Assembly: GCF_013122565.1 (NCBI RefSeq)
Contig: NZ_CP053258.1
Reading direction: 5' to 3' (one strand)
DNA: 64,000 nt
Source of the DNA: Escherichia coli
GTDB lineage: Bacteria; Pseudomonadota; Gammaproteobacteria; Enterobacterales; Enterobacteriaceae
Part shown: piece by piece, positions 42,654 through 46,889 of the stretch
Numbering within the stretch: the stretch's first letter is position 1
How the letters are laid out: the number at the start of each line of letters is the position of its first letter
Notes under the pieces: generated by a model
Seen by the model: the letters and a program-made list of their open reading frames with translations, nothing else
Told to the model about the DNA's origin: nothing
Database searches by the model: none
Made by a program: the position numbers and the translations under genes

Positions 42654-43763
<1,110 letters not shown>

Positions 43764-43826
43764 TGGGCGGTATTCTGAAACGGCGATTGTCGTGAGAACA
43801 GAATGGTTGCACCAGAATACAGATAT

Positions 43827-43856
43827 AAAAAAACCGACATGACAGTCGGTTTTTTT
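43827..43856. terminator. Bidirectional rho-independent terminator after selU
   Basis: A7-ccgacATGACAgtcgg-T7; works on either strand. Confidence 0.75.
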
Positions 43857-43914
43857 ATTTTTTCCGCCCAAGACTTGGTGGTTCTGGGCAGAAATGAAAC
43901 AGTCCTCATCTAGC
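43827..43914 (-). ncRNA. Candidate antisense small RNA (putative antitoxin) — hypothesis only
   Basis: Minus-strand sigma70-like promoter (-35 TTGAAT, 17-bp spacer, -10 TATAAT; + coordinates 43921-43949); predicted transcript runs into the 43827-43856 terminator; its 5' end is complementary to a 16-nt element upstream of the 27-codon ORF. Confidence 0.3.
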
Positions 43915-44174
43915 AAGTGAATTATAAGTCAGGATGCCTACATATTCAAACAGCTATGTTGGCGATACAATCCCGACGCTAGTAGTGATACTGCCTCAAG
44001 GGATTACCGCAGTGCGGAAAAGTACTTTTAAGTCCTGGTCAGGATACAGGTGGTGCTGATTCTGGTGCTCTAATTTGGAGAGAGGCAGTCCTCATCTAGC
44101 ACATGAAGAAAATCATAGTTACAGGCAATGTAAGGGTAAGCTGTGATTGTCTTTCTCCCTTAAGGGAGCAACGG

Positions 44175-44258
44175 ATGAAAACTTTTCTCGATAAAGTTCT
44201 CATCGTTCTTAAGGCGCTAATCGCGCTGCTGGAACTGATCCGTCAGTTTATTGAATAA
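44175..44258 (+). CDS. 27-aa hydrophobic peptide MKTFLDKVLIVLKALIALLELIRQFIE; candidate type I toxin (DinQ/TisB/ShoB-like)
   Basis: ATG with SD AGGGAG 7 nt upstream; SD lies inside hairpin ctcccTTAAgggag; stop followed by hairpin ggccgaaggtttaccaccttcggcc; peptide is a single amphipathic TM helix; not in the 60-aa-minimum ORF track. Confidence 0.55.
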   Translation: MKTFLDKVLIVLKALIALLELIRQFIE

Positions 44259-44276
44259 CTGAGGAAACGTAGCTAA

Positions 44277-44301
44277 GGCCGAAGGTTTACCACCTTCGGC
44301 C
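44277..44301 (+). terminator. Hairpin terminator after the 27-codon ORF
   Basis: ggccgaagg-tttaccacc-ttcggcc followed by TTT, then a second hairpin ccgacatgacagttgg with flanking A/T runs. Confidence 0.5.
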
Positions 44302-44370
44302 TTTAAAAAACCGACATGACAGTTGGTTTCATATTTATTGCCAAAATGCACACTGTTCATGCCAGATGCG

Positions 44371-44458
44371 GCGTAAACGCCTTATCTGGCCTACACAATC
44401 TTGCAAAATCAATATATTGCACGATCTTCGTAGACCAGATAAGCGTAGCGCATCAGGC
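44371..44458. repeat. BIME (two REP units) downstream of ybbP
   Basis: gccagatgcggcgtaaacgccttatctggcctaca and gtagaccagataagcgtagcgcatcaggc. Confidence 0.85.
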
Positions 44459-44474
44459 AATCTAACGCCTGTCA

Positions 44475-46889
44475 TCACCCCGCAAACTGCCTGAACAGCG
44501 CCTTACCCTTAACCAGTCGCGCACCCAGCCAGCCGCCGCAAAGCGACAGCAGCAGCGCTCCGCTGCACGGCAGAACAATCCACAATCGCCAGTCTGGCTC
44601 CCACGGGAAATCAAACACTTTCGCCTGCAACACTGCCAGCGCCGTTTCCGCACCAATTGCGGCCACCAGGCCAGAAACAAACCCAAGCATGGCGAACTCA
44701 CACCACAATGTCGTGCGCAGCAGCTTTTTCCCCGCACCGAGTGTGCGCCACACCACCAGCTCCTGATGACGCTGACGCATTCCCACCTGCACCTGTGCCA
44801 GCAACAGCAACATACCGCAGGCGGTGACCAGCACCACCATCACCTCCAGCGCCCGACTTACCTGCTCCAGCACCTGACCGACCTGTTTTAAAATCGCGCC
44901 AATGTCTAACAGGCTAATGGTCGGGAACTGGCGGTTGAGTTGCGTCAACATGCCGTTGCCATTCTCCCAGCGGAAACTGGTAAGCCAGCTCTGCGGTTGC
45001 CCGTCTAATGCCCCTTCAGGGAAAATAAAATAGAAATTAGGCCGCAGACTTTCCCAGTCCACTTTGCGCAGGCTGGTCACTTTAGCGCGGAACTCCTGGG
45101 TATCGCCCATAAAAGTCACGGTATCACCGAGGGCAACGTTTAAGCGTTTCGCCAGCCCCTCTTCCATCGACACTTCATCGGCTTTTGGCGGCCAGTTACC
45201 GGCGACAATCGGATTATGATCGGGCCGCGTATTTTGCCAGGTAAGATTGAGTTCGCGGTTAAGCGCCTCATCTTCATTACCTTCTGTCGGCTTATCGTTA
45301 ATCGCCGTCAGCCGCGCCCGCACCACCGGATAAAACGATTCCGGGACTATCTGATGTTCCGCGAGGAACGCTTTTAGCGGTGCTACCTGTTCTGTGGCGA
45401 TGTTAATTAAAAAGTAGTTCGGGCTTTCTGGAGGTAGCTGCTGCTGCCAGCGGTCGAGCAGATCGCCACGCAACACCAGCAGCAGTGCCAGCAGCATAAA
45501 GGAGAGCGAAAATGCCGAAAGCTGGCTTAACGTTGACCACGGCTGACGTAACAGGCGGCTAACCGCCAGGCGCAGAGGCAGCGATTTCAGCGTCATGCGG
45601 CGAAGTACATTCAGCAGCATCCAGCCCAGCACACCGCACAGCAAAGCCAGTACTACCGCGCCCGCCAGCACCGCCCAAAGCAGCATGCTGCCACCCATTA
45701 ATCCGGCGAGCAGCAGCACAACCACCACACTGACAATCGGCAGATAAAACTTCAGCGGCCAGACGTTCGCTACCACATCATTACGCAATACGCGTAAAGG
45801 CTGCGTTGCCAGCAACAAGCGGTACGGTCGTAGCCCCACCAGCAGCGAGATGACTGTCATGGTGCCCAGCGCCCATAGCCACGGCCAGAGGCTGGCAGGC
45901 GGTAGTGCAGCAGGTAGAACGGGCTTGAGCAGCACCATCAACACGTTTTCGAATAACAGGCCTATCGCCCCACCGGTAACGGCTGAAAGCGACAGCACCA
46001 TCAACCACTGACCGACGATTAGCTTACGCAGCTGCACTCGCCCAGCCCCCAGCGTTTTGAGGATCGCCACCAGATCGTAGCGACTGCGACAGTAATGATT
46101 CATCGCCACCGCCACCGCTGCCACTGCCAGCAGCAAGGTTAGAAGCGCAGAAAGCAGCAGGAACTGTTGCGAGCGTTCCATCGATCGCCCCAGCGCGCCT
46201 TCATCCTGTTCCAGACCATACCAGCGTTGTTCGGGTTTAAGCTGAGGTAACAACCATTTCTCATAGCCGTCGAGCTGGTTCTCGTTGCCGCCGAATTTAT
46301 AGCGCCAGGTGACCCGACTCCCCGGCTGCACGGCTCCGGTTTTATCGACATCCGCCAGATTCATCATCAGACGCGGAGCCATCTGGAAGGGGTTAAAACC
46401 GGAATCCGGTTCCTGAATCACTTCTCCGGCAATCCGCAAGGTGGCATCGCCCACGTCAATGGTGTCGCCCGTTTTCAGGTTAAGCAGTGCCATCAGGCGT
46501 GGGGCCAGCAATACGCTGCCCGTCTGTGGTTTCAGGCCGGGGGGATTGGTTTGCAGATCGCCATACATCGGGTAGATATCATCCACCGCTTTGACATTCG
46601 CCAGCTGCGGTGTGTCGCCTGCAAATGTCATGGTGGCGAAAGTCAGCTGCTTGCCGACTTTCAGGCCGCGCTTTTGCGCTTCCTCCAGCCACGCTTGCGG
46701 CACCTCGCGCGAACTGCGTAGCGCCCGGTCGCCCGCCATAAATTCACGGCTTTGCTGGCTTAAGCCTTTTTCCATGCGATCGCTGATATTACCCAGCGCC
46801 AGCACGCAGGCCACCGCCAGGCTTAACGCCAGCCAGACAATCAATAGCGAAGGCGAGCGCCATTCGCGCCAGAACCAGCGTGCAATCAT
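44475..46889 (-). CDS. ybbP: ABC transporter permease YbbP, FtsX-like (804 aa)
   Basis: Large polytopic FtsX/MacB-type permease; 4-nt overlap with ybbA. Confidence 0.92.
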   Translation of the reverse strand: MIARWFWREWRSPSLLIVWLALSLAVACVLALGNISDRMEKGLSQQSREFMAGDRALRSSREVPQAWLEEAQKRGLKVGKQLTFATMTFAGDTPQLANVKAVDDIYPMYGDLQTNPPGLKPQTGSVLLAPRLMALLNLKTGDTIDVGDATLRIAGEVIQEPDSGFNPFQMAPRLMMNLADVDKTGAVQPGSRVTWRYKFGGNENQLDGYEKWLLPQLKPEQRWYGLEQDEGALGRSMERSQQFLLLSALLTLLLAVAAVAVAMNHYCRSRYDLVAILKTLGAGRVQLRKLIVGQWLMVLSLSAVTGGAIGLLFENVLMVLLKPVLPAALPPASLWPWLWALGTMTVISLLVGLRPYRLLLATQPLRVLRNDVVANVWPLKFYLPIVSVVVVLLLAGLMGGSMLLWAVLAGAVVLALLCGVLGWMLLNVLRRMTLKSLPLRLAVSRLLRQPWSTLSQLSAFSLSFMLLALLLVLRGDLLDRWQQQLPPESPNYFLINIATEQVAPLKAFLAEHQIVPESFYPVVRARLTAINDKPTEGNEDEALNRELNLTWQNTRPDHNPIVAGNWPPKADEVSMEEGLAKRLNVALGDTVTFMGDTQEFRAKVTSLRKVDWESLRPNFYFIFPEGALDGQPQSWLTSFRWENGNGMLTQLNRQFPTISLLDIGAILKQVGQVLEQVSRALEVMVVLVTACGMLLLLAQVQVGMRQRHQELVVWRTLGAGKKLLRTTLWCEFAMLGFVSGLVAAIGAETALAVLQAKVFDFPWEPDWRLWIVLPCSGALLLSLCGGWLGARLVKGKALFRQFAG

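Follow-up and report, generated by a model that had tools for sequence, protein, structure and literature searches.

The 711-bp spacer between the convergent genes selU and ybbP (positions 43764-44474) of a 64,000-nucleotide window from Escherichia coli (assembly GCF_013122565.1, contig NZ_CP053258.1) very probably represents one allele among several that alternate in a hypervariable slot; in this allele, an old bacterial interspersed mosaic element of type 1 (BIME-1) is accompanied by an accessory cassette of about 571 bp from the DinQ/AgrB (dinQ-like, dql) family of type I toxin-antitoxin systems. The window is the whole stretch of DNA that was analysed, and all positions given here refer to it unless stated otherwise. 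An original prediction had described this interval as a Rhs-free selU-ybbP junction of about 710 bp, filled by structured non-coding sequence, a small-peptide module and a BIME, and had taken it for the empty state of an Rhs insertion hotspot with its native intergenic content. The spacing and the absence of Rhs were borne out, and all three kinds of content could be identified. The interval is not an empty state, however, as about 571 of its 711 bp form an accessory cassette that is absent from NC101, an O18:H1 strain, MS15052 and Escherichia albertii. The features on which this reading rests are listed in Table 1.

In E. coli K-12 MG1655, approximately 7.3 kb lie between selU and ybbP and contain rhsD, ybbC, ylbH and ybbD, as the original prediction had correctly stated, together with ylbI and ylbG. 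Alignment of window positions 43300-44900 with the K-12 locus (BLASTN) showed that homology ends at 43765, 2 bp beyond the selU stop codon, and restarts at 44469, 6 bp beyond the ybbP stop codon. The 711-bp sequence was not found at the K-12 selU-ybbP locus even with a word size of 7, and the BIME is likewise missing from both sides of rhsD. As these 711 bp have no counterpart at the K-12 locus, the possibility that they are present intact beside rhsD falls away. An empty-site test also failed to find the interval sequence split on either side of rhsD in K-12, and no insertion boundaries of rhsD, which the original prediction had hoped to define by this alignment, can be placed within the interval, of which K-12 keeps nothing. 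No Rhs core, YD-repeat open reading frame (ORF) or orphan tip was detected in the interval, either in the ORF list or by BLASTN against the K-12 rhsD region; the longest ORFs touching it (88 and 74 amino acids) lie on the opposite strand, overlap the 3' end of selU and do not resemble a Rhs core. Every allele that we compared carries its own sequence up to both stop codons, its own ybbP-proximal hairpin included, and even the last codon and stop codon of K-12 selU differ from those of the window allele. No shared spacer, duplication or att-like site was seen at the boundaries of the compared alleles. The relationship between rhsD and the window spacer is thus most simply described, from these alignments, as an allelic replacement that extends from one stop codon to the other. 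As no spacer sequence is shared between the alleles, they were probably exchanged by homologous recombination in selU and ybbP and not by site-specific insertion.

The cassette encodes a 27-residue DinQ-like peptide, MKTFLDKVLIVLKALIALLELIRQFIE, that matched the NCBIfam model toxin_DinQ (NF041472) with 40.9 bits (cut-off 30, E = 1.8e-10) and scored 24.5 bits against the DqlB model (NF041473), under its cut-off of 35. A longer in-frame ORF of 51 amino acids begins at 44103; neither peptide gave a match in Pfam, so the toxin is recognized by NCBIfam alone. In genomes that are 99.2% identical over the interval, the RefSeq entry for the peptide (WP_349808740.1) reads "dinQ: damage-inducible type I toxin DinQ". 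The similarity extends beyond the coding region, as positions 44030-44242, comprising most of the untranslated 5' leader (5'UTR) and the ORF, are 70% identical to K-12 dinQ (BLASTN). An alignment of six sequences (the window, K-12 dinQ, the dinQ of an IncX1 plasmid and three dqlB genes from plasmids) revealed the conserved 5'UTR blocks AAGTCCTGG, ACAGGTGGTGCTG, GTGCTCT, GGAG and GACAGGCA. The hairpin that sequesters the Shine-Dalgarno (SD) sequence varies between these genes by compensatory changes, reading CTCCC/GGGAG in the window, CTCCAT/ATGGAG in dinQ and TCCCTT/AAGGGA in the dqlB of an IncI1 plasmid. A G+C-rich hairpin, the putative terminator of the toxin gene, is placed like the hairpin that follows K-12 dinQ.

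Upstream of the toxin gene and divergent from it lies the gene of a putative antitoxin, an AgrB-like antisense small RNA (sRNA) that we term AgrW. AgrW matched the full length of the Rfam AgrB model (RF02891) with 56.5 bits (gathering score 40, E = 2.5e-8) and is 73-74% identical to each of K-12 agrA and agrB (BLASTN); the cassette has this one agr copy, whereas the K-12 locus has both agrA and agrB. In its near-consensus sigma-70 promoter, 7 nt separate the end of the -10 element from position 43913, the 5' end of the sRNA as defined by Rfam. The gene ends in a 14-bp hairpin, contained in the first of two direct repeats (DR1), whose stem is the same as the terminator stems of K-12 agrA and agrB. 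With A/T runs on either side (43825-43858), this hairpin is a bidirectional terminator and would end selU transcripts as well. The second repeat, DR2, is identical to DR1 at 26 of 27 positions and, on the minus strand, reads as a terminator for ybbP. The other Rfam matches that we considered (STnc370, OrzO-P, STnc50, RNAI, mir-509, rimP and engA) were all under their gathering scores and were rejected, such weak matches being due to the terminator hairpin or to chance. With its DinQ-signature peptide and its divergent, upstream and non-overlapping antisense Agr sRNA, the cassette has two hallmarks of the DinQ/AgrB (dql) systems and is predicted to be a member; its toxicity, its processing and the antitoxin action of AgrW are what we infer from the family.

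Not every feature of dinQ is shared. A LexA box of the form CTG-N10-CAG was not found anywhere in 43764-44474, whereas K-12 dinQ, used as a positive control, has TACTGTATGATTATCCAGT in its promoter. SOS control of the window cassette was consequently rejected, and the missing LexA box together with the single agr gene suggests that the cassette is probably not SOS controlled. The absence of the box also makes the RefSeq label "damage-inducible" doubtful for this copy, and the name "damage-inducible DinQ" is probably wrong here. RefSeq naming in this family is inconsistent in any case: an IncX1 plasmid copy and the window copy are both called "damage-inducible DinQ", while the window peptide combines a core of DinQ length with a DqlB-like C terminus.

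Regulation of dinQ and its relatives has been described by a model (Kristiansen et al. 2016, PMC5066626) in which the primary transcript is inert because its 5' element 1 is paired with element 2. Once the RNA has been processed at +44, element 2 is released and can pair with element 3, so that the SD becomes open; binding of AgrB to element 2 lets the 3:4 hairpin shut the SD again, and RNase III cuts the duplex. We folded the predicted dql mRNA by minimum free energy (MFE) and calculated its pairing with AgrW using RNAduplex. In the transcript starting at the inferred +1 (43978, 7 nt past the candidate TACAAT -10 element), positions 43978-43997 pair with the Agr target at 44081-44100 (1:2), as in the inert +1 form of dinQ. 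When the RNA starts at the equivalent of +44, positions 44077-44083 pair instead with 44152-44158 (2:3), and when the Agr target is blocked in the fold the CUCCC/GGGAG hairpin returns (3:4). These folds are consistent with the dinQ regulatory model without proving it. The first 36 nt of AgrW pair with dql mRNA positions 44049-44100 at -46.7 kcal/mol, through 14 contiguous Watson-Crick pairs (CAGUCCUCAUCUAG) and a G·U-rich extension. We used the first 36 nt of each sRNA throughout, as full-length values are inflated by long interior loops. The cross pairs were weaker, with -34.6 kcal/mol for K-12 AgrB:dql and -39.1 kcal/mol for AgrW:dinQ, and AgrW was the best of the tested partners for the window dql mRNA; the K-12 AgrB:dinQ pair, at -59.9 kcal/mol, is stronger than AgrW:dql.

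By analogy with dinQ-agrB, we propose that a weak promoter would produce a toxin mRNA with a 5'UTR of about 197 nt, which would be inert as long as its 5' end is paired with the Agr target site. Processing of the 5' end would allow element 2 to pair with element 3 and free the SD for translation of the 27-residue membrane peptide. AgrW, transcribed divergently from its near-consensus promoter, would bind element 2 so that the SD hairpin re-forms, and cleavage by RNase III would probably follow.

The accessory nature of the cassette is evident from alleles that lack it. The selU-ybbP gap measures 240 bp in NC101, 140 bp in the O18:H1 strain and 243 bp in E. albertii, and in all three it contains BIME sequence only, whereas MS15052 has a gap of 58 bp, without the cassette, whose hairpin is also present at the edge of an Hcp-toxin island. 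The G+C content of the cassette is 0.43, compared with 0.56-0.58 in the flanking genes. E. albertii shares the BIME (89.6% identity over 115 bp) and nothing else of the interval. The BIME, common to E. albertii and the minimal alleles, is the only old part of the interval, and the cassette, far from being native content, is accessory. A solo-hairpin allele was observed in one divergent Escherichia genome, SCPM-O-B-8794 (L010, 11096-11328), which consists of the DR1 left flank, one repeat of 25-27 bp, the DR2 right flank and the BIME, precisely the product expected if recombination between DR1 and DR2 had removed the cassette. As K-12 agrA and agrB carry the same terminator stem, the hairpin belongs to agr, and the solo-hairpin allele is for this reason best read as a deletion derivative. 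Among the complete E. coli genomes described below, no single-piece, full-length match to the solo-hairpin allele was found, and the full-coverage matches that we sampled were all cassette alleles matching in two pieces.

To place the window allele in its population, we surveyed 5,426 complete E. coli genomes, none of which is identical to the window; the highest identities are 99.2% for the interval and 98.9% for the 2 kb of flanking sequence, which places the window in a lineage outside this collection or in a close relative such as Shigella. A K-12-type ybbP-rhsD junction is present in 2,865 genomes, an Hcp-toxin island (tssD, 666-668 amino acids, with three DUF2931 genes) in 574, and a short gap, defined as selU and ybbP within 1.5 kb of each other, in 1,907. 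Taken together, these three states cover 5,346 genomes out of the 5,426. The slot is thus a recurrent site for cargo, and to this extent the hotspot postulated in the original prediction is real, even if the window does not represent its empty state. Counted by a 452-bp core, the dql cassette is present in 1,325 of the 1,907 short-gap genomes (about 24% of all genomes) and is at least 80% intact in 1,124 of these carriers. It occupies one place per genome, with six extra split places overall, and was never found on the plasmids of this collection. All but four of the 5,426 genomes (5,422) gave a match to canonical dinQ-agrAB DNA, with at least 80% covered in 4,593; going by these counts, as distinct from co-occurrence genome by genome, the window-type cassette should be a second copy beside canonical dinQ in nearly all carriers.

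The cassette is also strikingly uniform. At least 99% identity to the window over the 452-bp core is seen in 1,236 of the 1,325 carriers, compared with 34 genomes at this level over the flanking 2 kb. The same holds across Escherichia clades: Escherichia sp. E1V33 carries the full cassette at 98.3% identity, with 6 differences in 600 bp, whereas its selU and ybbP differ at about 8 positions per 200 bp (95-96% identity). The cassette is therefore several-fold less diverged than its flanking genes, which reflects either recent spread between lineages or strong constraint, two causes that these comparisons leave undistinguished.

We considered whether the 711 bp could, as originally supposed, be the native unoccupied region, later invaded by rhsD in the lineage of K-12. 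Rhs position 3 lies between ybbA and ybbB (Jackson et al. 2009, PMC2935791), and the Rhs element at this position has been inferred to be younger than the split from pathogenic strains without the Clade I rhs expansion, hence derived within E. coli (PMC2935791), which fits a junction that is Rhs free here and occupied by rhsD in K-12. This history is nevertheless very unlikely to apply to the interval as a whole, given that gaps of 58-243 bp exist without the cassette, that neither E. albertii nor the BIME-only E. coli alleles were found to hold remnants of it, that K-12 retains nothing of the 711 bp beside rhsD, the BIME included, and that the cassette, whose G+C content is below that of its flanks, has a toxin-antitoxin locus as its paralogue. 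Still further from what we observe is a scar left by integration of a plasmid or phage. Genes of the dql type are common on IncX, IncL/M and IncI plasmids, 1,706 plasmid records hold dql or dinQ relatives, and the DqlB-agrB pair of pOXA-48 is toxic, is rescued by agrB and acts as a plasmid addiction module (2025, PMC12365149). The plasmid relatives are, however, only about 67-76% identical to the cassette, a distance like that of chromosomal dinQ, and this low identity (about 69%) leads us to reject a plasmid scar. No plasmid, integrase or insertion sequence (IS) was found in the slot, and the single place per genome and the absence from plasmids of the E. coli collection further reduce an integration scar to a very slim chance. 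The few full-length "plasmid" matches include a 1.2-Mb record that resembles chromosomal sequence.

A more serious challenge to a working toxin-antitoxin cassette is that it may be a decaying, non-functional relic of a former copy, retained by chance. Several observations weigh against our reading, speak for such decay, or do both. About 200 of the 1,325 carriers (about 15%) have deletions, seen as partial coverage of the core, which implies that the toxin is dispensable. In GN02270, a deletion of 108 bp (window 44087-44194; L006 2651-2887) between the near-repeats AGTCCTCATC and AGTTCTCATC takes out the Agr target, the SD and the start and first codons of the toxin while leaving the Agr gene intact, and in the divergent lineage with the solo-hairpin allele all that lies between DR1 and DR2 is gone. 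The promoter of the toxin gene is weak, as is its -35 element, and was missed by the consensus scan. The antisense complementarity is imperfect, the AgrW:dql energy being close to that of K-12 AgrA:dinQ (-44.4 kcal/mol), an inactive pair according to PMC5066626, where AgrA gives no protection against DinQ. A further point against our reading is that ensemble accessibility of the SD changes little across the three mRNA forms (0.29, 0.37 and 0.29), as calculated with the inferred 5' end and processing site. On the other side, the window and about 1,124 genomes retain an undamaged ORF, SD hairpin, Agr promoter and terminator. A different Escherichia clade (L011) has a peptide with 100% identity, and the cassette is several-fold less diverged than its flanks, unlike what would be expected of a neutral relic. 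On balance we regard a relic as unlikely, and retain an accessory dql cassette beside an old BIME as the preferred reading.

It is tempting to speculate that the cassette is a recently spread, selfish "allele-addiction" module guarding the Rhs-free allele from replacement by the type VI effector islands, rhsD and Hcp-toxin, although at present we would rate this proposal as rather improbable. A recombinant that loses both the toxin and Agr genes would then be killed by the longer-lived toxin mRNA. Were this so, it would explain the low divergence, the strict single site and the lack of co-occurrence with either island, and the cassette would in addition be a LexA-independent paralogue of DinQ.

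Beyond the main subjects, some features of the locus and its relatives deserve mention. The BIME spacer contains a perfect match to the consensus WATCAANNNNTTR of integration host factor (IHF). The BIME gives partial, sub-threshold matches to naRNA4 and ES036, Rfam families derived from repetitive extragenic palindromes (REPs), because the last ~110 bp of the interval are the BIME itself. At the other end, an inverted repeat, GTATTCTG ... CAGAATAC, lies at 43772-43819, just past the selU stop codon and upstream of the bidirectional terminator; it may be a mere structure of the selU 3'UTR. Sub-threshold Rfam matches to STnc370 (37 bits) and OrzO-P (24 bits) lie near this repeat, on the plus strand at 43799-43861. 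In genomes with the Hcp-toxin island the 3' end of selU is altered: the match to the window ends 9 bp short, and the ORF of selU is extended by 12 bp. The tssD gene of this island, about 2 kb long and encoding the Hcp-toxin fusion, was observed with two or three downstream genes of DUF2931 type (L007 17064-21066; L012 1140-4467). Some genomes have IS1 copies inserted between ybbP and rhsD or between ybbP and tssD, the hits including E. coli C1 and Ecol_AZ153. The synteny of selU and ybbP is kept across the Enterobacteriaceae with variable gap content: Buttiauxella has gaps of 60-220 bp, while Citrobacter, Kosakonia and Superficieibacter carry a metNIQ-like ABC transporter and a porin gene between the two genes. 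The presence of these genes in three genera suggests that the short Escherichia spacer is itself derived.

Table 1. Positions of the features of the selU-ybbP slot and its borders in the window
Feature	Position	Strand	Basis
selU (mnmH, ybbB), tRNA 2-selenouridine synthase; left border of the slot	42669..43763	+	ORF; mnmH annotation in 99%-identical genomes
Short spacer beyond the selU stop, common to minimal (BIME-only) alleles	43764..43775	.	alignment with NC101, O18:H1 and GN02270
dinQ-like/Agr type I toxin-antitoxin cassette, ~571 bp	43776..44346	.	indel relative to BIME-only alleles
AgrW, AgrB-like antisense sRNA, putative antitoxin	43825..43913	-	Rfam RF02891 AgrB
DR1, direct repeat, Agr terminator stem-loop	43826..43852	.	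repeat comparison; stem as in K-12 agrA/agrB
Near-consensus sigma-70 promoter of AgrW, TTGAAT-17 nt-TATAAT, 10/12 consensus matches	43921..43949	-	consensus scan
Candidate toxin -10, TACAAT, divergent from the Agr promoter	43966..43971	+	read from sequence
Predicted dql toxin mRNA: 5'UTR of ~197 nt, ORF, terminator hairpin(s); 5' end inferred	43978..44330	+	
Agr target site in the 5'UTR, "element 2"	44076..44100	+	RNAduplex
SD-sequestering hairpin CUCCC-UUAA-GGGAG, "elements 3:4"	44155..44168	+	fold and alignment
ORF of the 27-residue DinQ-like toxin, ATG at 44175	44175..44258	+	ORF list; NCBIfam
Putative dql terminator, G+C-rich hairpin AAGGCCGAAGG-TTTACCA-CCTTCGGCCTT	44275..44303	+	read from sequence
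DR2, copy of the Agr terminator stem-loop	44304..44330	.	repeat comparison
BIME-1/RIP-type element	44359..44466	.	sequence reading, alignments
Y-type REP, within the BIME	44359-44394		
IHF-consensus AATCAATATATTG, between the two REPs	44407-44419		
Inverted Z2-type REP, within the BIME, ybbP side	44428-44466		
ybbP, ABC transporter permease; right border of the slot	44475..46889	-	ORF and annotation

Much of this is already known: the presence or absence of Rhs at this site, the toxin family and the RefSeq annotation of the ORF are all on record, and the allele is an ordinary and common one. The dql genes were defined on chromosomes and plasmids of Enterobacteriaceae, some strains having dql in addition to dinQ (Kristiansen et al. 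2016, PMC5066626), toxicity and its relief by agrB have been demonstrated by experiment only for dinQ (PMC3567139) and for DqlB-agrB of pOXA-48 (PMC12365149), and the T1TAdb database includes DinQ-like loci. Our literature search found no paper on the selU-ybbP cassette, on the fact that it has no LexA box or on the way it alternates with islands of type VI effectors, which are refinements within known kinds. They have some practical value in that about a quarter of complete E. coli genomes carry this DinQ-type toxin, nearly all of them presumably as a second one next to canonical dinQ, to be reckoned with in work on dinQ phenotypes and AgrB cross-talk outside K-12. A slot occupied in turn by a toxin-antitoxin cassette and by type VI effector islands of two kinds would also be a handy system in which to study allele replacement by flanking homologous recombination, and the cassette, being so much less diverged than its flanks, may have spread recently or be strongly constrained.

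The RhsD element of K-12 occupies an identical slot, between the stop codons of ybbP and selU, and shares no sequence with the window allele. The island encoding Hcp-ET, that is Hcp fused to a toxin domain, with its DUF2931 genes is another occupant of the same slot, also present in E. whittamii; what it carries, namely an effector of type VI secretion and putative immunity genes, is unrelated and does not occur in the window. The BIME, with a Y REP and an inverted Z2 REP around a predicted IHF-binding L motif, is an ordinary member of the BIME-1/RIP elements.

The cassette itself shares with K-12 dinQ-agrAB, located between gor and arsR, a hydrophobic peptide of the same 27 residues in length with the common core ALIALLELIR, a long 5'UTR with the conserved blocks and the SD-sequestering hairpin, and a divergent Agr sRNA whose terminator stem is the same and whose 5' region is antisense to the 5'UTR, at about 70-74% nucleotide identity overall. 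It differs from dinQ-agrAB in its location between selU and ybbP, in the lack of a LexA box and in having one agr gene instead of agrA and agrB in tandem. Its antisense match comprises 14 perfect base pairs plus wobbles, as against the 34-bp duplex reported for agrB/dinQ in PMC5066626. Relative to DinQ, the N terminus of the window peptide is 3 residues longer and its C terminus is DqlB-like (ELIRQFIE), resembling that of the DqlB of an IncX3 plasmid (ELIRQFID); relative to DqlB, a 31-residue peptide with an extra hydrophobic segment, it is without the 4-residue insertion. With its similar 5'UTR, sigma-70 promoters, terminators and SD, the cassette falls by definition into the dql family and, in contrast to the plasmid-borne dql genes, resides on the chromosome, where it keeps to one fixed site.

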